From Candidatus Cloacimonadales bacterium (GTDB taxonomy: Bacteria; Cloacimonadota; Cloacimonadia; Cloacimonadales; WRIO01), in NCBI GenBank assembly GCA_041654875.1, contig JBAZCP010000001.1, positions 89,920 through 153,919 of the forward strand: a stretch of DNA of 64,000 nt, in the 5' to 3' direction. Of the stretch, positions 7,133 to 63,600 are shown one piece after another. Positions within the stretch are counted from its first letter, which is position 1. Each line of letters starts with the position of its first letter. The translations under genes and the position numbers were made by a program. Under the pieces are notes generated by a model. It had not been told where the DNA came from. It searched no databases and worked only from the letters and a program-made list of their open reading frames with translations.

Positions 7133-7179
7133 CGTTTATCCGTCTTGGTTTATACGAATATTAGCTTTTTATTATCTTA

Positions 7180-7208
7180 TTGATCATTATTCCTTGACAT
7201 ATTATAGT
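7180..7208 (+). promoter_or_regulatory. Candidate sigma-70-type promoter of the thiamine operon
   Basis: TTGATC (7180-7185), a 17-bp spacer, then TATAGT (7203-7208), about 30 nt upstream of the TPP aptamer. Confidence 0.45.
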
Positions 7209-7236
7209 ATTAAATTTGTTTTGATTATGTAGAGAA

Positions 7237-7308
7237 TTTCTACAGGGGTGCTCGCAAGGGCTGAGATTAAACCCTTTGAACCTGATCCGGGTAATGCCGG
7301 CGTAGGGA
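7237..7308 (+). promoter_or_regulatory. TPP (THI-box) riboswitch aptamer
   Basis: Canonical core AGGGGTGC...CTGAGA...ACCCTTTGAACCTGATCCGGGTAATGCCGGCGTAGGGA. P1 pairs TTTCTAC with GTAGGGA. Downstream, CCCTCC (7340-7345) can pair either with GGGAGG (7305-7310) or with the SD GGAGG (7374-7378). Confidence 0.93.
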
Positions 7309-7382
7309 GGATAGATAAATCCCATACCTATGCCTATTACCCTCCAATGCAGGATATTACTGCAAATATGAAAGGAGGAGTA

Positions 7383-38569: not shown

Positions 38570-39418
38570 ATGAACCTTAAAGAAGTAAAAAGCTATATTT
38601 TCATAACTATTGGTTTGTTTATGAATGCTTTTGCATGGGCAGCTTTTCTCATCCCTCACGAAATCGTAGGTGGTGGAATCAGCGGGGTAGGTCTGGTAAT
38701 TTTTTCAAAGACAGGCATTCCAGTTGGTATTACAGTTCTAATTTGTAATCTTATACTTATTCTTATAGCACTCAAAGTGCTTGGTTCAAAGTTTGGAGCA
38801 AAGACAATTTATGGTATATTTGCATTATCAACATCACTTTCAATTCTACAAAAACTAATTCCTAATGCACTTGTATCAGATCCTTTTTTAGCAACATTAT
38901 TAGGAGGTGCAATAGGTGGATCAGGTATGGGTATTGCTTTTACGCAAGGTGGAAGCTCTGGAGGAACAGATATTATTGCGATGATGGTCAATAAATACAG
39001 ATACATTAGCCCTGGTAAAGTAATCTTATTTATTGATATTTTTATCATTTCATCATCATTTTTTATTTACAATTCAATTGAAAAAATCATTTATGGCTTT
39101 ATTGTAATGACAGTAGCAACATATTCAATAGATATGGTTATCAACGGTGCACGAGAATCAGTGCAAATAATGATTATATCAAAACATTTTGAAGAGATAG
39201 CAAATCAAATTGGTGTTGAATTGAATAGAGGTGTTACTTTACTTAATGGCAAAGGTTGGTATTCAAAAGAAGATATACAAGTTGTAATGACAATGTCCCA
39301 CAAAACGCAAGCGAGTGAGATTATGCAAATTGTTTCAAGTATAGATAAAGAAGCCTTTGTATCAATGGCTCGTGTAATGGCTGTTTTTGGAAAAGGATTT
39401 GAGCAATTAAGACACTAA
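38570..39418 (+). CDS. YitT-family membrane protein (DUF2179 C-terminal domain)
   Basis: 282 aa with a multi-TM N-terminus carrying the GGISG/GGSSGGTDI motifs and a soluble C-terminal domain. Confidence 0.8.
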   Translation: MNLKEVKSYIFITIGLFMNAFAWAAFLIPHEIVGGGISGVGLVIFSKTGIPVGITVLICNLILILIALKVLGSKFGAKTIYGIFALSTSLSILQKLIPNALVSDPFLATLLGGAIGGSGMGIAFTQGGSSGGTDIIAMMVNKYRYISPGKVILFIDIFIISSSFFIYNSIEKIIYGFIVMTVATYSIDMVINGARESVQIMIISKHFEEIANQIGVELNRGVTLLNGKGWYSKEDIQVVMTMSHKTQASEIMQIVSSIDKEAFVSMARVMAVFGKGFEQLRH

Positions 39419-39480: not shown

Positions 39481-40491
39481 ATGAAAAAACGATACTGGCT
39501 TAATCTAATTGTTATTATATTGTTAATAGCTTTTTCATTTTATCGATACAAACAAAGAATCTATACTGTAAAAAATTCACAGATTATGATGGATACACAG
39601 ATTGATATTTCAATATCTTCGAAAAATAAATCTGTTAACAGAATTGTTGATAAAAGTTTTAACATTGTCCGGATTTTTGATGACAAATTTTCGTATTATA
39701 ACGAGAACAGCGATCTTAATAAAATCAATGCCAGCACTTCAGATTCAATAAATATTGATCGTGATTTTTATGATATTTTTAAAATAGCCGAAGATATATA
39801 CCAACAAAGTAACGGTTTGTATGATGTTTCTATTGGTAACTTAATCGAGCTTTGGGATTTTAATGAAGGAGATATTCCTTCGAAAGAAAAACTTGACTCC
39901 ATAATAGGAAACGATACGTTTGAATTGATTCAGTTTGATAGCAAAATACTTAAAAAACCAAAAAATATGAAAATAAATCTTGGCAGTATTAGCAAAGGGT
40001 TTATAATCGACAAAGCAATGAGTTTTGTTGTTAAGCAAGGTGTTGAAGAGGCATTTATTAATGCTGGTGGAGACTTAAAAGTATATCGAAAAGATGAAAA
40101 ACCTATCAAAATTGGAATTCAACACCCAAGAATACCAAATAAAATAATTGCTACATTAAAAGTTAGCAATAAAGCAGTAGTTACTTCAGGAGATTATGAG
40201 CGATATTTTGAAAAGGATGGGAAACGGTATCACCATATAATAAATCCCAAAACAGGATTCCCTGCTCAAAACACAATCTCTGTAACTGTAATTTCTGAGT
40301 CTGCTACATTGGCAGATGCATTGTCAACAGCTTTATTTGTAATGAACCCAATAGATGGTATTGATTTAATAAAACAATATCCAGAAACAGAAGCTATTAT
40401 ATATTATCAGTCAGGCGATGGGCTCATATCATTAAAGTCTGAAGGAATGAAAGAATACATAGTATCGGAGTTGAATATTGATACAAAATGA
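39481..40491 (+). CDS. apbE: FAD:protein FMN transferase
   Basis: 336 aa with a signal anchor and ApbE motifs (MDTQIDISI, GSISKGFIIDKA, SGDYERYF..GKRYHHIINPKTG). Confidence 0.85.
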   Translation: MKKRYWLNLIVIILLIAFSFYRYKQRIYTVKNSQIMMDTQIDISISSKNKSVNRIVDKSFNIVRIFDDKFSYYNENSDLNKINASTSDSINIDRDFYDIFKIAEDIYQQSNGLYDVSIGNLIELWDFNEGDIPSKEKLDSIIGNDTFELIQFDSKILKKPKNMKINLGSISKGFIIDKAMSFVVKQGVEEAFINAGGDLKVYRKDEKPIKIGIQHPRIPNKIIATLKVSNKAVVTSGDYERYFEKDGKRYHHIINPKTGFPAQNTISVTVISESATLADALSTALFVMNPIDGIDLIKQYPETEAIIYYQSGDGLISLKSEGMKEYIVSELNIDTK

Positions 40492-41254
40492 TATACAAAA
40501 CCAAAAAGATAATCGTAATATTAAAATAGATAAAGTAGGCGTTAAAAATATTAGCTATCCAATTATTGTTGAAGATAGGACAAATAAAACTCAACATACT
40601 ATTGCAAATATTGATATTTTTGTTGATCTTACCGAAGTCTTTCGTGGCACACATATGAGTAGGTTTTTAGAAGTACTTAATAGCTATCATCAAGAAGTGC
40701 TGATTGATAATTTAGAAGCATTTTTAAACGACATTAAAGAAAAGCTTGGCTCCAATACTGCATATATTAATCTAAGTTTTCCCTATTTTATAAAAAAAAT
40801 AGCACCTGTGTCGAAAATTGAGTCTTTGCTGAACTACCAATGCGAATTTTCAGCAAGTCTAAAAAATGAATTAGACTTTATAATTGGTGTTACAGCACCT
40901 GTTACCGCTTTATGCCCTTGTTCGAAAGAAATAAGCGAGTATGGTGCACACAACCAAAGATCTGCTGTAACTCTCAAAGTTAAATACAAAGGCTTTGTCT
41001 GGCTGGAGGAATTAATTGAATATATTGAAAGTTCGGCAAGTTGTGAGGTTTTTCCTTTGTTAAAAAGAGTAGATGAAAAATTTGTTACAGAACAAGCTTA
41101 TGATAATCCATACTTTGTCGAAGACATTGTCAGAGAGATCGCTATAAAAGTAAAGGAAGATAAAAGAATTACCTGGTTTTCAGTTGAAGCAGAAAACTTT
41201 GAATCGATTCATAATCATTCAGCCTATGCTTTTATTGAACAGGATAACGTATAA
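40478..41254 (+). CDS. folE2: GTP cyclohydrolase FolE2/MptA family (type IB)
   Basis: 258 aa with IDKVGVKNISYPI, GTHMSRF and CPCSKEIS motifs. TTG start with GGAG upstream; the start is uncertain. Confidence 0.8.
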   Translation: MIQNDIQNQKDNRNIKIDKVGVKNISYPIIVEDRTNKTQHTIANIDIFVDLTEVFRGTHMSRFLEVLNSYHQEVLIDNLEAFLNDIKEKLGSNTAYINLSFPYFIKKIAPVSKIESLLNYQCEFSASLKNELDFIIGVTAPVTALCPCSKEISEYGAHNQRSAVTLKVKYKGFVWLEELIEYIESSASCEVFPLLKRVDEKFVTEQAYDNPYFVEDIVREIAIKVKEDKRITWFSVEAENFESIHNHSAYAFIEQDNV

Positions 41255-41258
41255 AACA

Positions 41259-43916
41259 ATGAAGTTAAAAGACAAAATTCTTGCAAATAAGTTTAAAGCT
41301 ATTTATGCTAAAGATAATTCTCACCCAATCGTTAATATGCAGCTTTATGTTAAAATGGGCTCTGGTTGGGAAAGCGATGAGCAGGAAGGTTTTACTCATT
41401 TACTTGAGCATTTAGTTTTTAAATCCACAAAAAAGTATCCAAATAGTAGTATTATGTCAAAAGCTTCATCTCTTGGTGCATATATTAATGCTTATACTGA
41501 TTATGATACGACATGTTTTTATATAAGCTTGCCCCGCTATAAGACTGCAAAAGGAATCGAACTTTTGTCTCAATTAGCAATCTCTGCAAACTTTTCTGAT
41601 GAGGACTTTGAATCAGAAAAAAAAGTTGTTATTGAGGAATTGAAACAATATCAAAAAGACAAAGAAGAATATTTTATAGAGCAAATACCGCGTTTGTATT
41701 TCAAAGAAAGCCCATACAATAAGCCTATCATCGGTTCAATTACTGCACTCAAAAAATGTAAAGCAGATGAAATCAGACAATTCTATAAACAATACTATGT
41801 TCCTGAAAACTGCTTTTTATGTGTGACTGGAGATATTGAATTTTATAGAATTCATAAGACTGTAGAAAAATACTTTTCTGAGTGGACCTGTAACAATGAG
41901 AACAAAACAAAACTACAATATCATATTGCACAATATAGTAAAACTAATAATGTTCAATACGACAATAATTTAAGACATCTAATATATGAACATTTCCCAC
42001 AAAAAATGAAAAGTAAATATTTGGCTTTTGTTTTTCCTGAATATTCTGATAAGCAAGAAGAATCGTTACAGCAGACACTATTAACAAGAATACTTTTTCT
42101 TGGCAATAATTCAATTCTTCATAAGCGTTTATTTTTAAAAGATAAGCTCATTTATGATATGAAAGTCCACTCTTATTCTGGAGTAAATAGTGGAATTTGT
42201 ATTCTGTTGATATCATTACGTAAACAAAACTATGCATATAGAGTAATTGAGACAATATTTGAAGAAATAACTAAATTTATGACAGGAAAATCAGGTAAGG
42301 AAGAACTTGATAATTCCCGTACTGTACTTGAGTATTCTTATTATTACTCATTTGAATATATAGAATCTTTGAATAATTGTTTGTCTTATGAAGAAATAAT
42401 TGGAGACTATAAAGAGATATTTAATTGGCTATATAAAATAAGAAAGATAAGCATCCACAATCTAAGAGATTTAGCTAAAGAACTATTCTCACCAGATAAA
42501 CTTATGGTCGTTAGTGCAGGCAAAACAAGTTTGAGAAAAGAAAAAATTGAAGAATTATTTAAGCTCAATTTGAATGATAATTATAATAGCACTGCAGAAC
42601 GCAATCCAGCAATAATTGGTGAGATAGATAAAGGCAAAAGCAAGAATTATGCAAATTTAAAAATATCACATACTATGTTAAAAAAAAATAGACATATGGA
42701 GCATATCTTACCAAATGGGATAAAGCTCTTTATTAATAATAGTTCTCAAAAAGATTTGTGTGGTATATCACTTGCATTGAAAAGCTCTCAGTTGTATGAA
42801 AATCAATCACAATTAGGACTAAATCAACTTACTTCAAGTATGCTTTTGTATGGAAATAAGTCTATGGAATATGTTGACTTCTTAAGCTATTGTAGCAATA
42901 ATGGTATTTCTTTCTCTGTTTCATGCTCTAAAGAAAATACAAAAATTCGGGCAAAATGTTTTTCAGATAAATTGGTTGAATCTTTATCTTGTATATCTGA
43001 CACTCTTTATAAGCCAACCTTTCCTTTAGAACATTTTTATAATGTTAAAAATACATATATTAGCAATATAGAACGTGCAACTGATTTTCCAGAAACAATG
43101 GCTTTGTATTCCTGGAAACAGCTTTTATTTGGTATGAATTCAAATCTATTGGGTAAAGATGGTCAAATAGAAACACTTAGCAAATTTGAACAAGAAGATT
43201 GTGTTAAATGGCATCAAGATCATCTAATAAACAGCAAAGCAAGCCTCGTCATTACAGGTGATTTGGATTTTGATAAAACTATTAAAGCTTGCGAAAACAT
43301 TTTCACATTAGGTAAACACCCACAAGAAAACGATTTAAGTATTATAGCCGATATCAATCCATCTGAACAACGAAAAAAGTTGATACGAAATGGTTCAGAT
43401 CAATCAATCATCTTTGTTGGAGGCTTTAGTTGTCCATATGCAGAAACAGAAGAGCGTATGGCATTATTAGTGCTATCACAAATATTAGGTGGCGATTTAA
43501 ACTCAAGACTTTTAAAAGAATTACGAGAAAAAAGAGGAATAGCTTATTCTATTGGATTTAACTTTGATAGTTTAATGCATACAGGCTATTTTAATGCTTA
43601 TACTATTGTGGATAAAAGTTTTGAGGATAAAGCTTTAGAAGTTATTCATAAGATATTTTCTACAATAAGAGAAAGAGGAGTTAATTTAAAAGAAATAAAT
43701 ACATCTAAACAATATATTAAAGGTTTGAGTTACTTCGAAGAAGAAGGCGTACTATCTCAAGCACAAACATTGTCTTCACTGTTTTTAGAAAATAAAGATT
43801 ATGATTATTATCAAAAAAGGGATCAGCGCATTAAGATGGTAACAAAGGATCAGATTCAATTAATTGCCGATAAATATTTTAGACCAGAACAGTTGTATAC
43901 TTTAACTTATAGTTAA
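41259..43916 (+). CDS. M16-family zinc peptidase, duplicated (two M16 units in one chain)
   Basis: Inverted zinc motif HLLEHLVF. Start moved to ATG 41259 (MKLKDKIL); the track start at 41184 would overlap folE2 by 71 nt. Confidence 0.8.
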   Translation: MKLKDKILANKFKAIYAKDNSHPIVNMQLYVKMGSGWESDEQEGFTHLLEHLVFKSTKKYPNSSIMSKASSLGAYINAYTDYDTTCFYISLPRYKTAKGIELLSQLAISANFSDEDFESEKKVVIEELKQYQKDKEEYFIEQIPRLYFKESPYNKPIIGSITALKKCKADEIRQFYKQYYVPENCFLCVTGDIEFYRIHKTVEKYFSEWTCNNENKTKLQYHIAQYSKTNNVQYDNNLRHLIYEHFPQKMKSKYLAFVFPEYSDKQEESLQQTLLTRILFLGNNSILHKRLFLKDKLIYDMKVHSYSGVNSGICILLISLRKQNYAYRVIETIFEEITKFMTGKSGKEELDNSRTVLEYSYYYSFEYIESLNNCLSYEEIIGDYKEIFNWLYKIRKISIHNLRDLAKELFSPDKLMVVSAGKTSLRKEKIEELFKLNLNDNYNSTAERNPAIIGEIDKGKSKNYANLKISHTMLKKNRHMEHILPNGIKLFINNSSQKDLCGISLALKSSQLYENQSQLGLNQLTSSMLLYGNKSMEYVDFLSYCSNNGISFSVSCSKENTKIRAKCFSDKLVESLSCISDTLYKPTFPLEHFYNVKNTYISNIERATDFPETMALYSWKQLLFGMNSNLLGKDGQIETLSKFEQEDCVKWHQDHLINSKASLVITGDLDFDKTIKACENIFTLGKHPQENDLSIIADINPSEQRKKLIRNGSDQSIIFVGGFSCPYAETEERMALLVLSQILGGDLNSRLLKELREKRGIAYSIGFNFDSLMHTGYFNAYTIVDKSFEDKALEVIHKIFSTIRERGVNLKEINTSKQYIKGLSYFEEEGVLSQAQTLSSLFLENKDYDYYQKRDQRIKMVTKDQIQLIADKYFRPEQLYTLTYS

Positions 43917-43920
43917 AATT

Positions 43921-44748
43921 ATGAAAGTAAGTGTTGGAATTGATTGTGGCTCACGCACTGTTAAAGCAGTGATATTTGATTGTGAGACAAAAGAAATAAT
44001 TGACTATGGTATTTTAGATAACGGCTTATTTCCTCTCAAAAACATCAATAAACTGCTTGATAATATATTGATTAAAAATCAAATAAAACCATATGATATA
44101 GCTTCTTTGGCTGGAACAGGCTACGGGAGGAATAGTGTAAATTTGCATAATCTGAATAGTCTTAAAAACCAACAAATTCCGCTATTTACCTTCTCTGAAA
44201 TTACTTGTCATGGTAAAGGCAGTAGCTATTTGTTACCAGATTGTCATACTATTATTGACATTGGGGGTCAGGATTCTAAGGTCATTTTGATCGATGATAA
44301 AGGCAAAACTATTGACTTTGTAATGAATGATAAATGTGCAGCAGGAACAGGTCGATTTTTGGAAAAACTTGCCCAAATACTCGACATGAGTCTTGATATG
44401 TTAGATCCACTTGCCAAGCAACATGATAGAAAAATTATTATAAGTAGTACATGTGTTGTTTTTGCTGAATCTGAGATCATAGGTCTTCTTGCAAATGAAG
44501 AAAAAGCTGAAAATATTATTTACTCAATCTACTCTTCTATTGCAAGGAGAGTATTTAGCCAGTCAGGCACACTTTCATTAACAAAACCAATATCCTTTGT
44601 AGGGGGAGTTGCTCATCACGAAACTATAAAAGAAATATTCTCTGAGTTGTATGAATGCGAAATAAAATCACCAGAGAACCCTTCCATTGCTGGTGCTTTA
44701 GGAGCTGCAATTCTTGCAAATGATAGTTTAGAAAGAGCTAAAAAATGA
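43921..44748 (+). CDS. BadF/BcrA/HgdC-type ATPase (2-hydroxyacyl-CoA dehydratase activator-like)
   Basis: GIDCGSRTVK, DIGGQDSK, cluster-ligand contexts DKCAAGTGRFLE and STCVVFAESE. No dehydratase subunits are adjacent. Confidence 0.8.
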   Translation: MKVSVGIDCGSRTVKAVIFDCETKEIIDYGILDNGLFPLKNINKLLDNILIKNQIKPYDIASLAGTGYGRNSVNLHNLNSLKNQQIPLFTFSEITCHGKGSSYLLPDCHTIIDIGGQDSKVILIDDKGKTIDFVMNDKCAAGTGRFLEKLAQILDMSLDMLDPLAKQHDRKIIISSTCVVFAESEIIGLLANEEKAENIIYSIYSSIARRVFSQSGTLSLTKPISFVGGVAHHETIKEIFSELYECEIKSPENPSIAGALGAAILANDSLERAKK

Positions 44749-45530
44749 AAATCGACACTCATCTACACTCTGTATATAGCTTTGATAGCACAATTAAAAC
44801 TGAAAAATTGGTAAAAAAAGCAATAGAACGAAACTATGAGTATATTTGCTTTACAGATCATTTTGACTTATTACCACAAGAATTATCAAAATATGGAATA
44901 TTGTCTTTGAAAAGATATAAAACCGAAATAGATTCATTGAGAGATAAGTTTCCACAAATAAAAATAGGTTTTGGCTTAGAGATGGGGGAGATGCATAGAA
45001 CACGTGAATTAAGAGAAAAAATATTATATGGAATAAAGCTTGACTATATTATTGGTTCTATACATTTGTTAAGGAATGAGAAAAACTTATCCACTCCGAT
45101 AAATTTTTCTTTACAAGATAGTGATATTATGTTATATTATCTTGAGACATTAGAAATGATTGAAAAAGGAGGGTTTGATACACTGGGTCATCTGGATATT
45201 TTTAAAAGAGAGCTTCAAACAAGTATTAAACAACACGAATACATACAGGAACTTTTAGATGATATTCTTTTAAGTTTAATTAAAAGAGAGATTTGTCTTG
45301 AAGTCAATTATTCAGGATTTAGATCTTCTTGCAATCATACATTGCCAGATTTTCCTATTCTAACAAGATATAAAAATTTAGGAGGAGAACTAATTACTAT
45401 TGGTTCTGATTCTCATAGAATCGATTTTTTTGACAAATATTATGATAAAACTGTATGCCTATTAAAAGATGCTCAATTTGATAAAATATTTTATAAGTAT
45501 GACAATAAATGGATCGAAAATAAAATATAA
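44745..45530 (+). CDS. PHP-domain phosphoesterase (HisJ family histidinol-phosphatase-like)
   Basis: MKIDTHLHSVYSFDS, FTDH, GHLD and GSDSH metal-ligand motifs. Confidence 0.7.
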   Translation: MKIDTHLHSVYSFDSTIKTEKLVKKAIERNYEYICFTDHFDLLPQELSKYGILSLKRYKTEIDSLRDKFPQIKIGFGLEMGEMHRTRELREKILYGIKLDYIIGSIHLLRNEKNLSTPINFSLQDSDIMLYYLETLEMIEKGGFDTLGHLDIFKRELQTSIKQHEYIQELLDDILLSLIKREICLEVNYSGFRSSCNHTLPDFPILTRYKNLGGELITIGSDSHRIDFFDKYYDKTVCLLKDAQFDKIFYKYDNKWIENKI

Positions 45531-45538
45531 GGAGATTT

Positions 45539-45868
45539 ATGAAAGCTATAACAATTGATAAAATAGAAGACGGAATGGTGTTAGCACAAGATGTTTTAAA
45601 CCCAAAAGGGCAAATATTAATAAAATCTGGCGTGACATTAGATGATTATTATATTAATGTCTTAAATAAGTTTAATATTGATGTAATAATGGTCGCAGGT
45701 GATAGAGAATCAAGAGAAATGTCGCGTGAAGAAAGAGCAGCTCTCATGATGCAAGTGAGACCTGGTAAAAAAATGATCTTTCAAAAATGTATAACCGATC
45801 CCTTTATATATGAAATGTATGAGGCAGTGGTACAAAATTCTGTATGGGAAAAATGGAATGAAAAGTAA
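45539..45868 (+). CDS. Small protein resembling the N-terminal accessory domain of HD-GYP proteins (DUF3391-like)
   Basis: 109 aa. The pattern KIEDGMVLAQDV..KGQILIKSGVTL....INVLNKFNIDVIMV is of the type seen N-terminal to HD-GYP domains. This is pattern recognition only. Confidence 0.3.
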   Translation: MKAITIDKIEDGMVLAQDVLNPKGQILIKSGVTLDDYYINVLNKFNIDVIMVAGDRESREMSREERAALMMQVRPGKKMIFQKCITDPFIYEMYEAVVQNSVWEKWNEK

Positions 45869-46721
45869 GAATGAAATTTTAAATTTAATACAACAAAATA
45901 TCCAAAACTCATCAGACTTACTATATTATAGTTCAGTAATAACCGAATTTAACCGTGCTATGTCAAGTCCAGATGTACAAATCGAAAAATTAAGTAATAT
46001 TATTGAAAAAGATCCTGGCTTGACTGCAAACGTTTTGAGAATGGCAAATTCAAGCTATTATGGTCTTTCCAAAAGAGTTATGACAGTCAAACATGCCGTT
46101 TCATTGTTAGGATATGTGTCATTAGAAAAAATATTTACAGTTAATGTGTTTAGTAAGAGTATTTCAAAACAAAGAACTGCTCATGGTGAAAATCTTTGGA
46201 AACATTCTCTTGCTGTAGCTATAGCAGCTCAACAAATAGTTTCAAATATAAAACCAGAGATGTCAGAATTGGCTTTTACTGCTGGACTATTACATGATAT
46301 TGGTAAGTTTTTGATAATGAATTTACTGCCAGATTCTTACAATAATCTTTTAAAAGAATTTAACAAAAATCCATATCAATATTCTATTGGACTTGATAAT
46401 AAATTCATAGGTATTGACCATCAGCAAGTTGGTGAGCTTTTTGCAAAATCATGGGACCTGCCCCAACCAATAATTAATGTTATAAGATATCATCATAATA
46501 TTGATTTTGCTAAAGATAATAAAGATATAGTTGCAGCAGTAAGTGTTGCAAATAACATCGTAAAAGGTATGGAATTAGGACAATCTACATCTATGTTGGT
46601 AGAACTAATTCCCAAATGGGTTTGGAGTTATATCTCACTAAACAAAGAGGATTTCTACAAAATAATTCCTTTAATTCAACAAAAATATAATGCATATTTA
46701 GCATTTTTAAATATTGTGTAA
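45858..46721 (+). CDS. HDOD-domain protein
   Basis: KLSNIIEKDPGLTANVLRMANSSYYGL...VKHAVSLLG and GLLHDIGK. Start set to ATG 45858 (MKSKNEIL), overlapping the upstream stop. Confidence 0.75.
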   Translation: MKSKNEILNLIQQNIQNSSDLLYYSSVITEFNRAMSSPDVQIEKLSNIIEKDPGLTANVLRMANSSYYGLSKRVMTVKHAVSLLGYVSLEKIFTVNVFSKSISKQRTAHGENLWKHSLAVAIAAQQIVSNIKPEMSELAFTAGLLHDIGKFLIMNLLPDSYNNLLKEFNKNPYQYSIGLDNKFIGIDHQQVGELFAKSWDLPQPIINVIRYHHNIDFAKDNKDIVAAVSVANNIVKGMELGQSTSMLVELIPKWVWSYISLNKEDFYKIIPLIQQKYNAYLAFLNIV

Positions 46722-46722
46722 T

Positions 46723-48297
46723 ATGGAAAAGTTTAATTTAGGAATACCTTATTTTGACCAAGCACTGAACAGTTTAGAAACAAGAACGCTTTATGGAGTA
46801 CACTCTAATAATGCAAAACTTGCTCAACTATTTGTTGCACCTATAATAACAAATCTTCTTGAACACAAAAAGTCAGTATTAATACTATGCGATACAACAG
46901 CAAATATATTGGTTGATACATACAAAATCTTTAATTTCGATACTCAACCATATATTGAAAGCCAACAACTTGTCATATTAGAGCAACCTCCTGAGTTAAG
47001 TAGCATACTATCTAATTTAAATAACCTTGAGATCGTATTTGACGACCTTCTGGTACATACAAACTGTTTTACTCCAGACTTTATATTTATCGAATCTTTA
47101 ATGTCTTTTCTACCAAAAAATAATAGCTCTGTAAGTAGAATTATAATAAATAAGTTAATCAACTTTTTGCAATCATTGCCTACCACATGTATTATTGATT
47201 TTTCAGACATTGAATATGATTTAGTATTATTCTTTGAAAAGCAAATGAATTCAATATTTTCTTTAAAGTATAGTGATAAACATAGAATTCACCAACTAAC
47301 ATATAAACAAATAAAATCAGATATATCAAAAGAATTCGCTTTTAGCCTGGAATCAAATAGATTTATTGATAAACCGAACTTTTATACTGGAGCCAATATA
47401 TCTGTAAACGACATAGAAACAGTGTATATTTATAAAGAATACAAAGCATTAGAAAATATACTTATAAAAGTTCTTACTACTCAGATAAAATTTGTACTTT
47501 TTGATCGACTTGAAAGCATTTTAGATAATCTAAAAGATAAAAATATGCTTGTATTTTTGCCAGGCTTATTAAAAAATGAAAATGGTGTAAAAATTGGGTA
47601 TGAGCTAAAATGTAAATATAATAGTATAAAACTAATTCTTTTAGTTGATAACTTAATAAGTGTCCAACAAAAAATTAGGTTTTTAAGAATGGGTATTGAC
47701 GGTTTTCTTGAAATACCCTTTTCTATTGATAAAATCAGTGAACTTCTTGCTAAACTTTACCCAATCGTAACTCATAGTAGTAGTAAGAGACAAATATCAC
47801 TGCTTTACACAAAAGATATAAAGTTTAATGTGGACAATCAAGGCATTGTATATTTCGATAATATCTACAGAGAGTTAAAAAACTATCTATATAAAACCTT
47901 TTCAAATGCATCATCGATTCAATTTATAAAGATAAAAATGCACAATATGAATATTAACTCTGTAGCTCCTATATTAAAGAAGCATGATGAGCTACTGTGC
48001 CTTTTTGTCGATAATGTTTTAGAAAAAGAAGTATATTTGATCGCTGCTTTCGAAAACATTAGCCAAAAAGCCAAACAAGAAATATATGCTCAACTAAAAA
48101 TTGCTATTGTGAATTCGACACACTTGATTCAAAGAGATTCTGAAAATGTGCTGAAAAAGATGTTTATTCCAGAGCAACAAAGCACCAGTGTTTATAGCAA
48201 TATATCTGAAGGTATTAGTCACGTTGACTTTATTAGCTATCCTTTTGACGAAGTAAATTATGACCAATTGATAAAAAGGTTATTTGAACATGATTAG
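46723..48297 (+). CDS. Hypothetical signalling protein: KaiC/RecA-like domain with degenerate Walker A, plus a pseudo-receiver and an unknown C-terminal domain
   Basis: The N-terminus follows the KaiC-like layout (LGIPYFDQALNS...LYGV-HSNNAKLA-...VLILCDT...FIFIESLMSFL...CIIDFSD). HSNNAKL replaces GxxGxGKT. The mid region looks receiver-like (MLVFLPG...KLILLVDN...GIDGFLEIPF). Confidence 0.35.
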   Translation: MEKFNLGIPYFDQALNSLETRTLYGVHSNNAKLAQLFVAPIITNLLEHKKSVLILCDTTANILVDTYKIFNFDTQPYIESQQLVILEQPPELSSILSNLNNLEIVFDDLLVHTNCFTPDFIFIESLMSFLPKNNSSVSRIIINKLINFLQSLPTTCIIDFSDIEYDLVLFFEKQMNSIFSLKYSDKHRIHQLTYKQIKSDISKEFAFSLESNRFIDKPNFYTGANISVNDIETVYIYKEYKALENILIKVLTTQIKFVLFDRLESILDNLKDKNMLVFLPGLLKNENGVKIGYELKCKYNSIKLILLVDNLISVQQKIRFLRMGIDGFLEIPFSIDKISELLAKLYPIVTHSSSKRQISLLYTKDIKFNVDNQGIVYFDNIYRELKNYLYKTFSNASSIQFIKIKMHNMNINSVAPILKKHDELLCLFVDNVLEKEVYLIAAFENISQKAKQEIYAQLKIAIVNSTHLIQRDSENVLKKMFIPEQQSTSVYSNISEGISHVDFISYPFDEVNYDQLIKRLFEHD

Positions 48298-48625
48298 CCA
48301 ACTCTATACAGGCTTGATTCTTATCACAATACTGATTACAATAGTTATGATATTTATTATAAAAAGATTAAAAGCCTTAATCAATATTCAAAAAACACTC
48401 CGTAGAATTAATCAAAACGATAAATTTGACAGAGAAGATTTGTATTCAAATTCCAACTATAGTAGGTTAATAATTAATCCCCTTAGTAACCAAAAGCGTT
48501 TTTTTAGGTTGTATAAGAGCGGATATAATTTAATTTGTAGCAAGGAATACAATAAAGTCACATATAATTTAGAAAACTATACTGTTTTTAGAATTTTTGA
48601 AAATAAAGTTAAAAGCGAGAGATAA
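48290..48625 (+). CDS. Small single-pass membrane protein, hypothetical
   Basis: One N-terminal hydrophobic helix (LYTGLILITILITIVMIFII). Translationally coupled on both sides (overlapping stop/start codons). Confidence 0.4.
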   Translation: MISQLYTGLILITILITIVMIFIIKRLKALINIQKTLRRINQNDKFDREDLYSNSNYSRLIINPLSNQKRFFRLYKSGYNLICSKEYNKVTYNLENYTVFRIFENKVKSER

Positions 48626-49002
48626 TGGAAACACTTAATACAAGCATTAAAAGTTTATTAGCTATTGATGAAAATATTGAAGACTATGCTCAACTTAATT
48701 CAATTTTATTATATCATAATATTGACGTAAAACTCATAAACAACATTCTGAATGCAGAAAATGAGATTCAGCTAACAAAATATGATTGTTATCTTATAGC
48801 TGATGTTATAAATACTGAAAAAACAACTTTCCTAATTGATTTAATAAAAATTTATAACCCTGGAGCTGTGGTTATTCTTGTAGCGGAAAATCCAACAGCA
48901 GAAATGATTATCGAATACATACCTTATGGTATAGATAATGTAATAACAAAGCCCTTCCTGTGGACATCTATTGAAAATGTTTTAAATATATATAATTACT
49001 GA
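48625..49002 (+). CDS. Stand-alone receiver (REC)-like protein
   Basis: 125 aa with CheY-like beta-alpha periodicity (LLAIDEN, CYLIADV, VVILVAEN, VITKPF). TAATG overlap with the upstream gene. Confidence 0.55.
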   Translation: METLNTSIKSLLAIDENIEDYAQLNSILLYHNIDVKLINNILNAENEIQLTKYDCYLIADVINTEKTTFLIDLIKIYNPGAVVILVAENPTAEMIIEYIPYGIDNVITKPFLWTSIENVLNIYNY

Positions 49003-49014
49003 CAAACAGTCCAT

Positions 49015-49923
49015 CTATAAAAGCTGTTTCTCTGTTTCTGCCATGATTTGTACGAAATCTTGTTCTTTTGTAGAATTATCATTTATTGCCCATTCGAATT
49101 CTATGGCAATAAATCTTGGGTTATTAACTATTGAATTATGAATTCTATTAATCACTTTTTCACCGTCTATTTTGTTAACCTCATATAAAAAAATTGCAAA
49201 AGTATCAGGATATAATATACCTGCAAAGTCTGTATCTCTAATATTTTTCTTTATAAGATTAGATATTTCTTGCAAAAATAATGACAGTTTATGGCTTCCA
49301 AATGCCTGAGATACTTCTTCTAATTTTTTAATTTTAACGAGACTAAGTGTGTAAGTTCTATTATATCTTGCCAATACGGCATGTTTTTTAATACAATTTT
49401 TAATAAAGCCTTTGTGGTTATAAAATCCAGTATTGCTATCCATCTCATTTGTTTGTTCTAATTCTAATTGGAGCTGCTTAATTTTTAGGATTAATGATAA
49501 AAGTGAACAATAAACATTTATTTTTTCAATTTCATAGTCGCTAAAATAATCTTTTTGTCTATCAATAAACACAAAACCAATAAGATCAACATGATAATAA
49601 AGCGGGAATATAATTAGATCAGTAGCAATATATTCAAAACACATACGGTTATCGCTATAGCGTAATGACTGGAATGATTGCAAGCTATGGACAATCTTAT
49701 CACTATCTTTACATATATGGTTTTTTATAAAAGTAGGGGACAGGTGCTTGTGTGCTTTTATATGAAAAAGATTATCTTCATTATTTCTCAAAAAGATTCC
49801 TAATGATTGAAAAGGAATTTCATTTTCAATATTATTTATAACACTATATAAGTTTTCTTCTATAGTGTTTTTACTTATAAGACTTTGGCTCAATTCGTTA
49901 ATATCTTTAAACCCTATGTTCAT
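49015..49923 (-). CDS. GAF-like / degenerate GGDEF domain protein
   Basis: The C-terminal half follows the GGDEF fold (DSNTGFYNHKGF...LSLVKIKKL...). The active-site position reads GILYPDTFAIFL instead of RxGGDEF. Confidence 0.5.
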   Translation of the reverse strand: MNIGFKDINELSQSLISKNTIEENLYSVINNIENEIPFQSLGIFLRNNEDNLFHIKAHKHLSPTFIKNHICKDSDKIVHSLQSFQSLRYSDNRMCFEYIATDLIIFPLYYHVDLIGFVFIDRQKDYFSDYEIEKINVYCSLLSLILKIKQLQLELEQTNEMDSNTGFYNHKGFIKNCIKKHAVLARYNRTYTLSLVKIKKLEEVSQAFGSHKLSLFLQEISNLIKKNIRDTDFAGILYPDTFAIFLYEVNKIDGEKVINRIHNSIVNNPRFIAIEFEWAINDNSTKEQDFVQIMAETEKQLL

Positions 49924-49925
49924 TT

Positions 49926-51266
49926 TTATCTCCTTTTAATTCTTTGAGTCCATCTAATAACGTCAGTTTCTCCTGCTTTAATATTTCTTTCAATTGTGAT
50001 GGTATAGGCATCTTTTTCTGTGTATTCGAAGTTTTTTTCTATGATTTTATAGTTATTATTGCCAATATAGTGTGAAATGATTAATTTAATCGGTTCTATC
50101 TTTTTATTTTGTATTTTGACTTCAAACTGTTGTTCTATATCATTTCCAATTTTTATATCTTTGATAATTTTTGTATTTGCAATAACGTCAAAAGCGTTTC
50201 CAATAGTCAATAAGACATTTTGATCGATACTTGTATGTGGTAAATCATCTTCGCCAATAAACTCGATATTATTATCTGCATCATCGTATTGGTATAATTT
50301 TACGATTCCTTTTGGTAATGGGATTCCCAATCCATTCTTCTTTGTGTTTTTAAAGTTAATAGTAGACTTAACTTTGTTATTTGAATATTGACTGCTATCA
50401 TATCGATATATTCTTTCAATTGTAATTTCTTTTGTATCAAACAAAAGCATTTGCTTTATTTGCTTGTCATTTATACTTGCTTTTTGGTCTAATGTATAAA
50501 GATGATAGTCGGCAAAGGATTTTTCTTCAAATGTTGGAGAGCTTCTTTCCATCATTGCATCTTTAGAGTACAACACATTTCCAGCACGGTATGTATCTAC
50601 TTTGTTCAATTCACCAGCGACCAATTTTAAAACTACTTGATCATAAGACTTTCCACTCTGATTATTAATTGTTACCCATGGGCTTATTTGGACTTTGTTT
50701 TGAATTAATACGGCATTGTATGTTACATACCAGCTTAAACCTCTTGTTATATAAGAAATTGTAACTGGGTATTTACCTGTTAACGGAGCATTGAGCTGCC
50801 AATTTAACGTTGGTTTAGTATAAAAGTTTGAGGGTAAGTTTAAAAGCTTAATGCTCTTAATTTCTTGTTTATTTAATAAATTAAGCTCTTTAGTCTTTTC
50901 ATCTTGTAATCCTATTGTATTCATGTTGAAAAATAGTAAAATACCATCAAACTCTGTATTATCTTTCATAATAATGCTAATGTTGGAGTTGATATACTTT
51001 TTGAGTATGGCATCAGTGTCTGCCAAGTCATATTCATAGTTTTGTGAAAACAAAAATAGATTCTTATTTTTAGAAGAAAAGATTAGAGAGCTTGGTTCTA
51101 TTCTTTCTGGTATATCATTATAAAGGTAATTTTGGATTCCTTTTTGAAGATGCAAATCTAATTCAGTTTTAAAAACAGCTAAATTGTCATTATAAATTGT
51201 CAGATTGTCTAAAGCATAAAGAAGCACAGAGCTTAATAAAATAATAATAAAAATTCTTTTTAACAT
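49926..51266 (-). CDS. Secreted DUF4139-like protein
   Basis: 446 aa with a signal peptide. The N-terminal LTIYNDNLAVFKTELDLHLQKG pattern is typical of the DUF4139/DUF4140 family; from memory only. Confidence 0.4.
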   Translation of the reverse strand: MLKRIFIIILLSSVLLYALDNLTIYNDNLAVFKTELDLHLQKGIQNYLYNDIPERIEPSSLIFSSKNKNLFLFSQNYEYDLADTDAILKKYINSNISIIMKDNTEFDGILLFFNMNTIGLQDEKTKELNLLNKQEIKSIKLLNLPSNFYTKPTLNWQLNAPLTGKYPVTISYITRGLSWYVTYNAVLIQNKVQISPWVTINNQSGKSYDQVVLKLVAGELNKVDTYRAGNVLYSKDAMMERSSPTFEEKSFADYHLYTLDQKASINDKQIKQMLLFDTKEITIERIYRYDSSQYSNNKVKSTINFKNTKKNGLGIPLPKGIVKLYQYDDADNNIEFIGEDDLPHTSIDQNVLLTIGNAFDVIANTKIIKDIKIGNDIEQQFEVKIQNKKIEPIKLIISHYIGNNNYKIIEKNFEYTEKDAYTITIERNIKAGETDVIRWTQRIKRR

Positions 51267-51952: not shown

Positions 51953-52522
51953 TTAAAAGTCAAGTACTTTTTTAAATAAAGATATCATAAATCCTGCTTC
52001 ATGATTTAAAAGCATTGTGGTAAAGCGGTTATCGTTTTTAATAAAGTTTTGATAAAGTTTTGTTGTCTCACAGTGAGAGCAAATATTGTCAGCAACAATT
52101 ATTGCATTATCATTCAATTTTGGCATTATTAAGTTGATATAATCTATGTATGCTTTTTTATTTGCATCAATAAAAACAAAATCATAATCATTTGTCAATG
52201 AAGGAATAATATCCTCTGCTTTGCCAAAGTATTGTTTGATATTTTCCAAACCACAGAGGTTTTTTATAGCCATTTGATAACGCTTCTCATCAACCTCAAT
52301 TGTTTCAATCATGCAATTATTATTGACAGCAAGACTCATAATAAAAGTAGAAAAACCGTTCGATGTTCCTACTTCTAAAACATTATTTGCATTTTTTGCT
52401 TTAAGAAGAAAAAATAAAAGTTGAGCAGATTCTGTATCAACGTTCCAAAGTCTTCTAATCTCAGACTTTTGTTTTTCAAATAATTTGAATCGTTCGAGAT
52501 GTTTGATTCTTAGTTTTTCCAT
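51953..52522 (-). CDS. Class I SAM-dependent O-methyltransferase (family 3)
   Basis: VLEVGTSNGFST and FVFIDANKKAYIDY motifs. Confidence 0.75.
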   Translation of the reverse strand: MEKLRIKHLERFKLFEKQKSEIRRLWNVDTESAQLLFFLLKAKNANNVLEVGTSNGFSTFIMSLAVNNNCMIETIEVDEKRYQMAIKNLCGLENIKQYFGKAEDIIPSLTNDYDFVFIDANKKAYIDYINLIMPKLNDNAIIVADNICSHCETTKLYQNFIKNDNRFTTMLLNHEAGFMISLFKKVLDF

Positions 52523-53634
52523 CTATATTTACCAAATGTTCCTTTTAATCCATAAAACAAAAAGTAAGGTATATAAAACAACTCAATAATAGGAAAGATT
52601 ACAAGATACTTATACATTTTCATTTTAAATAACCAAGGCATAATTAATATCAAATCAGAAACAACTTTTATTGAGAATAAAAATATGAAAATAGACCAAT
52701 TTACAAAGCTAAACAAGCTCAAAAAGAATAAGATCAATATTAACAGATAATAAAATGCTACCAATAGGATAATTGTTTTTAGATAAGCTGGATAATGTTT
52801 AAGCTTTGATGCACGCCTAATTTCTTGATGATGATGTTGTATAAGGCTTTTTTTTTCTTTCGCTGGTACAATTGAGCTCTCTGTAAACATAAAATTATAC
52901 GCTCGAATGAGTTTTCTTTGCATCAAGAGCATTAAATCGTCGTCGCCAGACATAATCATTCCGATTTTGCTAAAACCACCAACTTTTATAAAATTCTCTT
53001 TTCGATATGCCATATTACGTGCTGTGCAAGTCATTGCAATCTTTTGTCCAAAGCTGGCAGAGCATAAGGCAAAAATAGAGATTCTCTCAAAAGATTTGAA
53101 GATATTAATAAAACTATTTTGTTCATAAATAAAGGGGGAGAAGCCTGCTACGAAATCTATATCTTTTTCGAAGTGTTTGTTTAGCTCACTAAGCCATTGT
53201 AATGAAGGTAAACAATCAGCATCTGTAAAAGCCAAAAGTTCATATCTTGCTTTGTCAATACCGATTTGCAAAGCCCGTTTTTTCCCAATTAGGTTTTTAT
53301 ATTTTTCGTCTTCAACATAATCAGATACTTTGTATATAGAGATATTATATTCTTTTTTACAGTTCTCAATCTTCTCAACAGTATCATCACTCGATCTATC
53401 ATCAATAAAAATAATTTCATAATGAGATTCAGGATAATCTTGTTTTGTTAATAGCTCGCAAAGCTTATCTATGTATTGAGATTCATTTCTCGCAGCAATA
53501 ATAACAGAAAACTTATTATCTGGTTTTTTTTTATTTTTGTACAGGTGTTTAAAATGCCCTAAGCTTAAGTAGATAAAAAAAATAAGATATGATGTAGATA
53601 AAAAGAGAATTATTATTATAATAGCAATAATCAT
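52510..53634 (-). CDS. Membrane glycosyltransferase family 2
   Basis: FSVIIAARNE...IIFIDDRSSDDT, a DAD motif (FTDADC) and C-terminal TM helices. Confidence 0.8.
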   Translation of the reverse strand: MIIAIIIIILFLSTSYLIFFIYLSLGHFKHLYKNKKKPDNKFSVIIAARNESQYIDKLCELLTKQDYPESHYEIIFIDDRSSDDTVEKIENCKKEYNISIYKVSDYVEDEKYKNLIGKKRALQIGIDKARYELLAFTDADCLPSLQWLSELNKHFEKDIDFVAGFSPFIYEQNSFINIFKSFERISIFALCSASFGQKIAMTCTARNMAYRKENFIKVGGFSKIGMIMSGDDDLMLLMQRKLIRAYNFMFTESSIVPAKEKKSLIQHHHQEIRRASKLKHYPAYLKTIILLVAFYYLLILILFFLSLFSFVNWSIFIFLFSIKVVSDLILIMPWLFKMKMYKYLVIFPIIELFYIPYFLFYGLKGTFGKYRWKN

Positions 53635-60656: not shown

Positions 60657-63600
60657 ATGGTAAAGAGTATGAAACGAAAAACAATAAAAAAAGTAAATCT
60701 TCAAAGTAAAAGCGAAGGACAAGAGCACGTTGTTAAAGATTTTCAATTGGAAGAAAATGAATTTATCGACAATAGATATCGTGTTATCGAGCCTCTTCAC
60801 TCAAGTAGATTCAGCCAAATATATCTCGCTGAAGATATAAATTTAGGCAAGTTTGTTGTTATTAAAATATTTGGCAAATATTTCGAATTAAAAGATAATT
60901 ACGAGTTTCTTAAGTTATTTACCAATCAATTTAAAACATTAAAACATAAAAATATCGTAAATATTGAAGATTTCATCGATTCCAATTATGTTTTTCAAGT
61001 AATGGAATACATAGAAGGCCACACTTTAGAACACCTTAATGATAAAAGATTATTAAAGAAATCACAAATTCTGCCTTATTTACTTCAAATTGCAGAGGCA
61101 ATGCAAATGGCACACGCCAAAAGTATCTATCATTGTGACTTAAAGCCCTCTAATATCATGGTTAATAATCAAGATATCATAAAAATTATAGATTTCTCTC
61201 ATCCACAACTACATAAAACTCTTTATGGTGAAGATATCTTAACAAACGAATACATAGCTCCTGAATTTTTAAATAATGTTTTGGAAAATACTGATAACGT
61301 GCAGCGTGATATTTATGCTTATGGTATCACTATGTTCGAATTAGTTTATGGTTACTTACCCTTTAAGACAAACTCAAATCAACAAATAGAGTATATTCTC
61401 CCCAATAAATTACGACGTAGTAAAAAGCCTATAGATAAAATCATAAGAAAATGTATTTATTATTATCCCGAAGACAGATATCAATCATTTGATGAAGTAA
61501 TTACTGACCTAAAATCAATAAAAATAACAAAAGAGCCACTTTTGCATACATTTAAAAAAACATTTGCTAATACAATTAAACTCAAGAATATTAATCCTGA
61601 CTATAGAAGTGATTTGAAATATTTATGGCTCGCTTTGATGTCGCTTTTGTTGATATTACCTTTTTATTTAGTTGTTCAAAGAAATTATGAGCAGCCTTAT
61701 AATGAAATTGAAATTGACTCTCCCCCATATCATTTATATGTAAACATGCTTAATCAAGGTCAATTGCCACTTAAAACAGCATTAAAAAAAGGCGACCATT
61801 TAGAGTTTGTTGATAATCAAGGTAATAGTATGTTTGAAATGTTTTATAATAATGAAAAGAAACTTGATATAGAGTTTCAAAGAAAAAAGATATTTGTTAA
61901 CAAGAAACTATACGGTCAAACTGTAAAACATGTGCATGATTTACCTTTAGGAAAGAATTTAAAATATCTTAAAACAGATATTTTCTTATCAAAAAAAGAT
62001 TTTAAAAAACAAAATAATTACGGATTTATTATCAACTTAGATGAAGTAATAGACGAACAGATTTTTAGTGAACTACCAAATAAAACAGCATTTATTAATA
62101 TGAAAAATAATAAAAAAATCAAAACAATTAATAGCTTAAAGAGATTGAAATATCTGGAAGGGTTAAACATTGAAAACAGTGAAATTAACACTGAGGATCT
62201 GAAAGAAATTAAGCCACTTAAGCATCTTAACTTAAAGAAAACAAAAATTAAACGCCTCTCCCCTATCTTAAAGCAAACTCAACTTCAAAATCTCGACATC
62301 AGCGATACAGATATTGAAATACTAAATAGTATTGAAAACCTTAATAGCCTTGAGAACCTGTTTCTGTCAACAAACATGATAAGTGATTTTAGACCGCTTT
62401 ATAAATTATCAAATTTGCGATCAATTAGTACTAATACTCAGGGCTTTCAAGAGAGTACTATCGAAGAGTTTAGACAGTTTTTAGATAGATCTAATGCACA
62501 GAAAAGTATCAGGCATAAATATATTTCAAAGAAAAACAATAATTATTTTTATTTCATATTATTTTTAGTTACACTGATAATGGCTGCAGTTATAGTGTTC
62601 TTGTTTAGGCTTTTATTTAAAAAAGTTAAAAAGCAACTGAATAATATAGTAGCAGATATAGATGAAGCTGAACAGCAAGAAGAACCACAAAAAAAGATCA
62701 AAGCATACGGCAGCAGAGAATTAAGTCTTATTAGAACATCAATAGATGATAATAGGCTCTACACGCCTCCAAAAGATAATGCACTATACTATTTAGGTAC
62801 ATTGTTGAATGACAATGATCAAGACAAAGAGCTATTGAGTCTTAAAGATGAATTAATAGGTATATTGGAAGATAAATGCAAACTGCATGTCAAGCGAGAT
62901 GAATATGAAGCTATTTATCTGATTAGTGATGCTTGTAATCAATATTTTCCAAATGAAGTTTATTCAAGCAAACTAAAAATGGCTAAGAAGCACCTTTTGA
63001 AAAACTATTTAATTAAAATGAAAAAAATAAAAAAAGGAAGCTTTTTAATGGGTGATTTTACAGTACAATTTTCTGATAAATCTCTAACACCTCACATAGT
63101 ACATGTAGAATCTTTTAAAATTAGTGACACAGTAATTACCAATAAACAATTTTGTGAGTTTTTAAATGCTGAAGGTAATCAAAGAGAATATGGAACCTCA
63201 TGGTACAAAGAAGATAGCCAATACGCTCGTATTGAGAAATTACATGGACAATATATATGCAAAGAGCCTTACAATGATTTTCCTGTATATGATATAAACT
63301 GGTTCGGAGCAATGAGGTTTTGTGAGTGGAAAGGTGGAAGATTACCTACAGAAGCAGAATGGGAATATGCAGCAAGATCAGCAGGAAAAAACAATCTATA
63401 TGCTATTAACGGCAAATTAAACAAAAACAATGCAAACTATCTTGTTGATATAAATGACACATTGTGGCATTCTGTTTTTCCTGTTAAAAGTTTTAAACCA
63501 AATAGTCTCAAATTATATGAAATGAGCGGCAATATTCTCGAGTGGTGTTATGATTGGTATGATAAATATTATTATGATATTTCGCCAGAGAACAATCCCA

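Follow-up and report, generated by a model that had tools for sequence, protein, structure and literature searches.

In BcsE, a protein of 523 amino acids (aa), a RecA-like N-terminal domain with a degenerate Walker A motif (residues 1-217) is followed by a degenerate receiver (REC) domain and a degenerate GGDEF domain (PMC7439463). BcsF is a single-pass membrane peptide of 63 aa, encoded right after bcsE (PMC11470070). The cytosolic tail of BcsF adds a β-strand to the sheet of the degenerate NTPase domain of BcsE and recruits BcsE to the membrane (PMC11470070). BcsE systems are characteristic of β- and γ-Proteobacteria (PMC8892547). Here I describe a gene string in a 64,000-nt stretch of DNA (the whole stretch is called the window below) from a Candidatus Cloacimonadales bacterium (contig JBAZCP010000001.1). 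The conserved unit of this string is four genes, encoding a metal phosphoesterase, a triple pseudoenzyme of about 525 aa (called the scaffold below), a single-pass membrane protein, and a single-domain receiver. The scaffold and the membrane protein are built much like BcsE and BcsF, and it is tentatively proposed that they may work in a similar way.

An earlier note on this DNA, made from the sequence alone, had pointed to five tightly packed plus-strand genes. These were confirmed as open reading frames (ORFs) at 45539-45868, 45810/45858-46721, 46714/46723-48297, 48284-48625, and 48625-49002. Together with the phosphoesterase gene immediately upstream, the gene string is as follows.

44745-45530, plus strand: PHP-family (HisJ-type) metal phosphoesterase (Pfam PHP, TIGR01856)
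45539-45868, plus strand: small soluble protein of 109 aa, optional and never found without the HDOD protein (orthologues; no Pfam family)
45858-46721, plus strand: HDOD protein with a complete set of di-metal ligands, an optional accessory (Pfam HDOD and HD, TIGR00277)
46723-48297, plus strand: scaffold, 524 aa from Met4 (527 aa from the TTG at 46714), predicted to have three domains (structure model, Foldseek, profiles)
48284-48625, plus strand: 113-aa single-pass membrane protein (hydrophobicity and synteny)
48625-49002, plus strand: 125-aa single-domain receiver (Pfam Response_reg, CheY-anchored alignment)

The co-directional plus-strand run starts far upstream, and the PHP gene stops 8 nt before the 109-aa gene. 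All junctions among the five genes overlap or abut. The ATG of the HDOD gene at 45858, placed by the N-termini of its orthologues, gives an 11-nt overlap with the stop of the 109-aa gene. The scaffold gene begins 1 nt past the HDOD stop when read from the conserved Met4 (46723), or overlaps it by 8 nt when the TTG at 46714 is taken as the start. The scaffold and membrane-protein genes have 14 nt in common, and the ATG of the receiver gene has one base in common with the stop codon of the membrane-protein gene. Consensus scans for promoters and terminators performed no better than on shuffled sequence in this DNA of about 30% GC.

Is this arrangement found in other genomes? Word-indexed searches with the 527-aa protein or with an alignment of 21 sequences gave only 2-3 proteins, because the AT-rich, low-complexity composition fills the candidate list. 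Therefore, scaffold homologues were collected by an exhaustive HMMER search of 1.84 billion representative proteins. It gave 36 proteins of the scaffold family, 27 of them at E≤1e-10 and about 20 of full length (500-540 aa). The family alignment used below has 21 sequences. The only named homologue is an 'ATPase domain-containing protein' of Candidatus Cloacimonadota, and a GTDB scan gave one scaffold locus, in a Cloacimonadota metagenome-assembled genome. So far as they were traced, the identifiable members of the scaffold family and of the module belong to Cloacimonadota only. The 527-aa protein falls into no family of Pfam or NCBIfam, and the gene combination, which the earlier note had not recognised as a described system, is not one.

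I compared the neighbourhoods of 14 distinct loci, 13 with downstream sequence and 13 with upstream sequence. Each of the 13 loci with downstream sequence has the core trio of scaffold (about 525 aa), membrane protein (96-125 aa), and receiver (about 125 aa). The identity of their scaffolds to the window protein is 17-49%, and the gene order is kept even at 17-23%. The flanks of the trio vary and include FUR/FeoB, PFOR, Mfd, acetyltransferase/TPR, isochorismatase, and hemerythrin/OTCase genes. At four loci (L006, L009, L011, and L016), both flanks are entirely different and the identity is down to 17-20%, and the start and stop codons of the trio still overlap or abut. In summary, the co-conservation of the trio is strict, the upstream phosphoesterase is near-obligatory, and the pair of the 109-aa protein and the HDOD protein is an optional insert, lying here after the PHP gene. 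The earlier note had suggested looking for conservation of HDOD, pseudo-KaiC, and REC genes together; relatives do keep the scaffold, the membrane protein, and the receiver together, whereas the HDOD gene is present in only 6 of the 14 loci.

The scaffold was modelled with AlphaFold2. A run with 3 sequences was unusable (predicted local distance difference test score, pLDDT, 41), and the model used here comes from the run with the 21-sequence alignment (pLDDT 82). Three domains are seen in it: a RecA/KaiC-like α/β domain (residues ~1-220), a receiver fold (~236-350), and a third domain (~358-527) in which a long helical insert accompanies a β-α-β-β-α-β core. The KaiC-like and receiver parts had been recognised in the earlier note, which described a 525-aa pseudo-KaiC/pseudo-receiver protein, while the third domain had been missed. 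The core of the third domain in the model is compatible with a stripped cyclase core. This domain has no sequence relatives; its profile gave no match in the PDB at E≤10, and in Pfam nothing above noise.

The N-terminal domain is predicted to adopt the KaiC fold. In a Foldseek search of the PDB with the model, the top match is KaiC (7e-14, about 420 columns). A Pfam scan of the 527-aa protein gives a weak KaiC match (4e-4) and a weak REC match, both sub-threshold. The KaiC model PF06745 matches 16 of the 21 members, the best at 1.5e-12, and scores 20.1 bits against a cut-off of 26.6 on the window protein; a weak MEDS match is found in 3 members. As had been claimed for the window protein, the Walker A motif (GxxxxGK[ST]) is missing, and this is so in all 21 members; the corresponding segment in the window reads HSNNAKLAQLF. 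The Walker B position is variable or degenerate across the family. The scaffold thus resembles KaiC and other RecA-superfamily ATPases, including the P-loop-less MEDS, in the fold of its N-terminal domain. It differs from KaiC in having one RecA-like domain instead of two and no Walker A motif, with no evidence of hexamers or autokinase activity. A true KaiC-type clock or autokinase was rejected, the P-loop being found in no member.

For the second domain, a profile made from three sequences matched CheY-type receivers in the PDB over residues 234-350 at 5e-9, in line with the pseudo-receiver assignment of the earlier note. Across the 21 members, the position of the acceptor Asp is mostly occupied by Pro and the Lys is replaced. 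The pseudo-receiver bears a family-specific motif, QKxRxxRxG(A)D, on its α4-β5 part, and YPxDExxID is a second such motif, C-terminal in the protein. RxxD does not occur at any conserved position of the family. Judged from these alignments, all three domains of the scaffold appear to be without catalytic or phospho-acceptor residues. These results support the suggestion that signalling enzymes are represented at the centre of the string by non-catalytic relatives, which probably act by protein-protein contacts.

The gene of the membrane protein directly follows the scaffold gene in all 13 loci with downstream sequence. The protein has a single hydrophobic 19-mer (residues 8-26) followed by KRLK, so that the single-pass assignment of the earlier note stands. 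Since the N-terminal transmembrane helix is followed by this Lys/Arg-rich segment, the tail of about 85 residues is predicted to be cytoplasmic by the positive-inside rule. The tail carries the conserved motifs R..INPL and YD....T.FR.Y.

The small receiver of the window matches Pfam Response_reg at 3.7e-5, with 24.3 bits against a gathering score of 30.2. Orthologues from 12 loci were aligned, with the E. coli CheY sequence used as a ruler for positions only. The window receiver keeps D12 and K109 (the lysine of KPF), while D57 is replaced by Ala, with an Asp at +1, and T87 is replaced by Ala. An acceptor Asp is present at the D57 position in 6 of the 12 orthologues, those of L004 and L010 being examples, and the other 6, the window protein among them, have Ala, Ser, Asn, or a gap there. 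Thus, the stand-alone REC of the earlier note is a receiver, although, given the Ala in place of the acceptor Asp, probably a pseudo-receiver too; the Asp at +1 is a possible substitute acceptor. The loss of the Asp in 6 of the 12 lineages does not track with HDOD: among the loci that carry HDOD, the acceptor Asp is kept in L014 and L007 and missing in the window, L013, and L002.

The upstream slot is occupied by a phosphoesterase in 11 of the 13 loci with upstream sequence, namely nine PHP proteins and two TIM barrels of the AP_endonuc_2 type. The window PHP protein, rightly named in the earlier note, matches Pfam PHP at 9.6e-23 and TIGR01856 with 121 bits against a cut-off of 90.2. Its metal-binding set of the pattern HxH, H, E, H, H, DxH (H6, H8, H39, E79, H107, H149, D222, and H224) does not vary among 8 orthologues, and the protein is likely the catalytic member of the module. 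The AP_endonuc_2 gene is found in L007 (7217-8008) and L009 (5509-6288), and its stop overlaps the start of a 530-aa scaffold gene. The best match of the L007 protein is the cobamide-remodelling phosphodiesterase CbiR (3.7e-16, under the model cut-off). The alternation of PHP and AP_endonuc_2 may be a non-orthologous displacement of the phosphoesterase. The earlier note had called every recognisable piece non-catalytic, which does not hold for the PHP protein with its intact metal ligands or for the HDOD protein, which keeps its di-metal site. With the PHP ligands intact, the run is therefore not made "almost entirely" of dead domains.

Two loci, L006 and L011, have no phosphoesterase adjoining the scaffold gene. 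In L006, a 227-aa P-loop protein (7073-7756; GAYGSGKS, with weak CbiA/ParA matches) is encoded 245 nt upstream of the 531-aa gene, with no PHP. It recalls BcsQ, the ParA/MinD-like partner of BcsE, and is a single case. In L016, the PHP gene and the trio lie in an unrelated wider upstream context.

How far does the likeness to BcsE and BcsF go? The scaffold corresponds to BcsE in size and in its predicted domain order and boundaries, with a P-loop-less RecA/KaiC-like N-terminal domain and a degenerate receiver. The third domain is a degenerate GGDEF domain in BcsE and, in the scaffold model, an α/β domain that is an orphan by sequence. Foldseek aligns the model over its full length with BcsE chains 9fp0_E, 9fo7_E, and 9fnn_U (E of about 2-4e-12, 504-558 columns), and 9fo7 is an entry of the BcsE2F2 subcomplex. 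As in BcsF, an N-terminal transmembrane helix and a cytosolic tail are encoded immediately downstream of the large gene; at 100-125 aa, the membrane protein is, however, roughly double the length of BcsF (63 aa). The module also differs from BcsE-BcsF in adding an obligatory receiver and a near-obligatory phosphoesterase, in having no link to a synthase, and in having been traced so far to Cloacimonadota, not to Proteobacteria.

By analogy, these genes may encode a membrane-tethered pseudoenzyme scaffold module working like E. coli BcsE2F2, a reading to which I would give somewhat less than an even chance. The membrane protein would tether the scaffold, which may be a dimer, to the inner membrane, and the conserved cytoplasmic tail of the membrane protein might add a β-strand to the pseudo-NTPase sheet. 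The pseudo-receiver and the C-terminal domain would form a platform for docking the small receiver and perhaps a phosphorylated ligand too, with the small receiver bound on the α4-β5-α5 face that bears QKxRxxRxG(A)D. The co-translated phosphoesterase would be localised or gated by this assembly. Where the small receiver has kept its Asp, an unlinked kinase would modulate the assembly by phosphorylating it. In the window lineage, this input would have been lost, and the HDOD protein and the 109-aa protein may replace it. A wider claim is that this is an undescribed module in which a BcsE-like triple pseudoenzyme with a BcsF-like anchor couples a receiver or pseudo-receiver to a phosphoesterase of the PHP or AP-endonuclease type. 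The scaffold principle would then be general, independent of a synthase, and would have arisen or been kept outside Proteobacteria, and it could serve in sensing a nucleotide or phospho-ligand other than cyclic di-GMP (c-di-GMP); taken as a whole, this is possible but doubtful.

Several results weigh against the BcsE2F2-like reading. The template-modelling scores (TM-scores) to BcsE are low (0.24-0.28) and those to KaiC are slightly better, and therefore the N-terminal RecA fold carries most of the structural signal, even if low TM-scores are expected for flexible multi-domain proteins. A profile-profile comparison by hhalign with a 16-sequence BcsE profile is collinear over 305 columns and not significant (E=0.11, probability 0.55%). 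The I-sites of BcsE (R415TGD on the degenerate GGDEF domain and R306ATD on the degenerate receiver) have no conserved counterpart in the scaffold family. Every protein-protein contact in this reading is inferred. The identity of the PHP proteins is 42-54%, far above that of the scaffolds, and the PHP protein could be a housekeeping histidinol-phosphatase that merely shares the operon. The other sequence comparisons with BcsE gave no significant match either. With a single BcsE sequence, the E-value of hhalign is 0.49; PF10995 (CBP_BcsE) scores 13.3 bits on the window protein against a cut-off of 25, over residues 5-75, and matches 3 of the 21 members, at the N-terminus. Genes for BcsA, B, Q, R, or G were found in none of the loci read. 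By these profile tests, the scaffold is not a member of the BcsE family. Because these tests fail and the TM-scores are low, the comparison with BcsE-BcsF is one of architecture, not of demonstrated homology.

The HDOD protein and the 109-aa protein occur together in 6 of the 14 loci, always within the gene string of the module. Orthologues of the 109-aa protein in L002, L007, L013, and L014 are each encoded directly 5′ of the HDOD gene, and in L007 the pair lies upstream of the AP_endonuc_2 gene. The HDOD assignment of the earlier note was confirmed by Pfam (8.6e-55, 185.7 bits), and the protein also matches HD (9.6e-12) and the HDIG model TIGR00277 (45 bits, above its cut-off of 27.6). The closest solved structure is Geobacter 3HC1 (1.7e-21), with H, HD, H, and HH aligned. 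In 3HC1, two irons are bound by five His and one Asp, and SadB lacks three of these His (PMC12075610). The window protein has a like fold and the same five His and one Asp; H117, H147, D148, H189, H213, and H214 are invariant in three orthologues. All six di-metal ligands are thus kept, and the protein, which had been taken for a degenerate HD domain, is not visibly degenerate. It differs from Pseudomonas SadB in having no YbaK domain and an undegraded metal pocket.

The 109-aa protein had been called DUF3391-like. None of its 5 orthologues matches the Pfam model of DUF3391, even at E≤10, and no Pfam family was found for it. All 5 weakly match the last ~45 aa of the NCBIfam model NF053512 (REC-HD-GYP), the best at 9e-5. 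On this match, its N-terminal module (GM.La.DV...G..L.K.G..L) is of the type fused to HD-family signalling enzymes; the N-terminus of the partner of the window HDOD protein thus resembles a segment of HD-GYP response regulators, which fits the strict pairing with HDOD. Marginal matches of the 109-aa profile to segments of RNA polymerase β′ in the PDB were judged uninformative.

Two further genes flank the string.

43921-44748, plus strand: HgdC-type acyl-CoA dehydratase activase, a syntenic neighbour upstream of the PHP gene (TIGR00241, 236 bits)
49015-49923, minus strand: 302-aa protein with a GAF-like region and a degenerate GGDEF domain, a convergent neighbour outside the module (GGDEF, 1.6e-10)

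The minus-strand gene converges on the string and its product has a degenerate GGDEF site, both as first noted; the gap to the receiver gene is 12 nt. The GGDEF part of the assignment is clear (1.6e-10, 41.4 bits), with YPDTF in place of GG[DE]EF and the β1 Asp replaced, whereas the GAF part has only a weak match to the NifA N-terminal region (E=0.005). What had been overlooked is an intact I-site, RDTD, five residues before YPDTF. In three orthologues, the active site reads YPDTF, FSDMF, or FPDTF, and R229xxD232 of the I-site is invariant. The gene is adjacent to the trio in 3 of the 14 loci, that is, the window and the syntenic L001 and L013, on the opposite strand, and so does not belong to the unit in which the earlier note had placed it. 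Its product is a plausible PelD-type receptor for c-di-GMP, specific to one lineage and separate from the module. This protein resembles PelD in an N-terminal GAF-like region, a dead GGDEF site, and an RxxD five residues upstream, while it differs in having no transmembrane segment, no pel genes nearby, a weak GAF call, and a place outside the module. In the core proteins, no conserved c-di-GMP-binding motif was found, and a link of this locus with c-di-GMP therefore runs only through this neighbour. A 446-aa protein with a weak DUF4139 match is encoded 2 nt downstream of it (49926-51266, minus strand); since this gene is kept in L001 and L013, its product may be a functional partner of the receptor.

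Other explanations of the locus were weighed. The earlier note had taken six genes, for the 109-aa protein, HDOD, pseudo-KaiC, membrane protein, REC, and degenerate GGDEF, as one c-di-GMP sensor/adaptor complex made of dead domains. They do lie side by side in the window, L001, and L013, the last protein combines a lost GGDEF site with the RxxD of an I-site, and c-di-GMP binding has been put forward for HDOD proteins (PMC6543031). Still, such a complex is quite unlikely when the degenerate GGDEF gene is missing from 11 of the 14 loci and lies on the opposite strand, the HDOD and 109-aa genes are missing from 8 of the 14, the di-metal site of HDOD is complete, and RxxD is conserved in no core protein; a later study, moreover, saw no binding of c-di-GMP by SadB, which is the best-studied protein with an HDOD domain (PMC12075610). 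It is highly improbable that the scaffold and the membrane protein are diverged true orthologues of BcsE and BcsF in c-di-GMP control of a synthase-dependent exopolysaccharide. No homologue of BcsA, B, Q, R, or G is co-conserved, the I-site motifs of the BcsE/GIL type are missing, PF10995 gives 13 bits against 25, and the profile-profile comparison is not significant. Against this stand the architecture, the size, and the adjoining membrane-protein gene as in BcsE/BcsF, and the ParA/MinD-like P-loop gene upstream in L006, which recalls BcsQ. A GT2 glycosyltransferase with a membrane domain, encoded 3.5 kb downstream in the window, would also fit, but it is found in syntenic close relatives only.

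E. coli bcsE, bcsF, and bcsG are in one operon, and BcsG is a membrane phosphotransferase. By analogy, the scaffold and its anchor might be an assembly factor of envelope biogenesis and not a signalling device, bringing the PHP or AP_endonuc_2 protein to the membrane, where the substrate would be lipid-linked or a sugar phosphate. That an upstream phosphoesterase is conserved with two unrelated folds alternating, and that the L007 protein is nearest to the phosphodiesterase CbiR (3.7e-16, under the cut-off), would suit this idea. However, the receiver is always present and points to signalling, L006 and L011 have no adjacent phosphoesterase, and BcsE and BcsF make no direct contact with BcsG even in E. 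coli (PMC11470070), so I regard it as unlikely. Finally, there may be no functional module at all, only synteny inherited within one phylum, with products that work independently. All identifiable members are from Cloacimonadota, and several loci share an ApbE-FolE2-M16-activase-PHP block that includes unrelated housekeeping genes. Yet the trio persists where both flanks have changed (L006, L009, L011, and L016), its start and stop codons overlap or abut there at 17-20% identity, and outside this arrangement neither the scaffold nor the membrane protein has a paralogue or homologue among the 1.84 billion representatives; mere inheritance is very unlikely.

If the reading as a tethered scaffold module is true, this would be a second BcsE-like system, in an unrelated phylum dominated by uncultured members, with a receiver and a phosphoesterase in place of the synthase. 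To date, the only known role of BcsE and BcsF is that of accessories in proteobacterial cellulose secretion. A tethered scaffold of pseudo-NTPase, degenerate receiver, and cyclase-like domains would then be a reusable regulatory design, and an independent system would be at hand for asking what triple pseudoenzymes sense. The loss of the receiver acceptor in about half of the lineages offers a natural series from a phosphorelay part to a pure adaptor. An HDOD subtype with an intact di-metal site bears on the question of what HDOD domains do. A context is also given to a family so far named only 'ATPase domain-containing protein'.

The activase upstream of the PHP gene, correctly identified in the earlier note, is present in the window, L002, L004, L010, and L013, which form one sub-lineage, and there is no dehydratase partner nearby. 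Before it lies a 910-aa fusion of two M16 units (41184-43916, plus strand), whose halves weakly match the YfmF and YfmH models, under their cut-offs; these models are linked to the 5-aminopentanol modification of EF-P. The activase and the M16 peptidase were rejected as parts of the module, both being absent from L016, L007, L009, L006, and L011. The ApbE-FolE2-M16-activase-PHP block, noted with 39481-40491 and 40478-41254, is syntenic in L002, L004, L010 (without M16), and L013. The plus-strand run opens with a gene for a YitT-family membrane protein with a C-terminal DUF2179 (38570-39418, plus strand), followed by ApbE; the YitT-family gene is not kept at this position in the other loci. On the downstream side, the GT2 glycosyltransferase gene (52510-53634) was rejected as the regulated synthase, its distribution being limited to syntenic close relatives. 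Farther downstream, a 1034-aa protein (60657-63761, plus strand) has a Ser/Thr protein kinase domain, leucine-rich repeats, and, at its C-terminus, an FGE-sulfatase domain like that of the formylglycine-generating enzyme.

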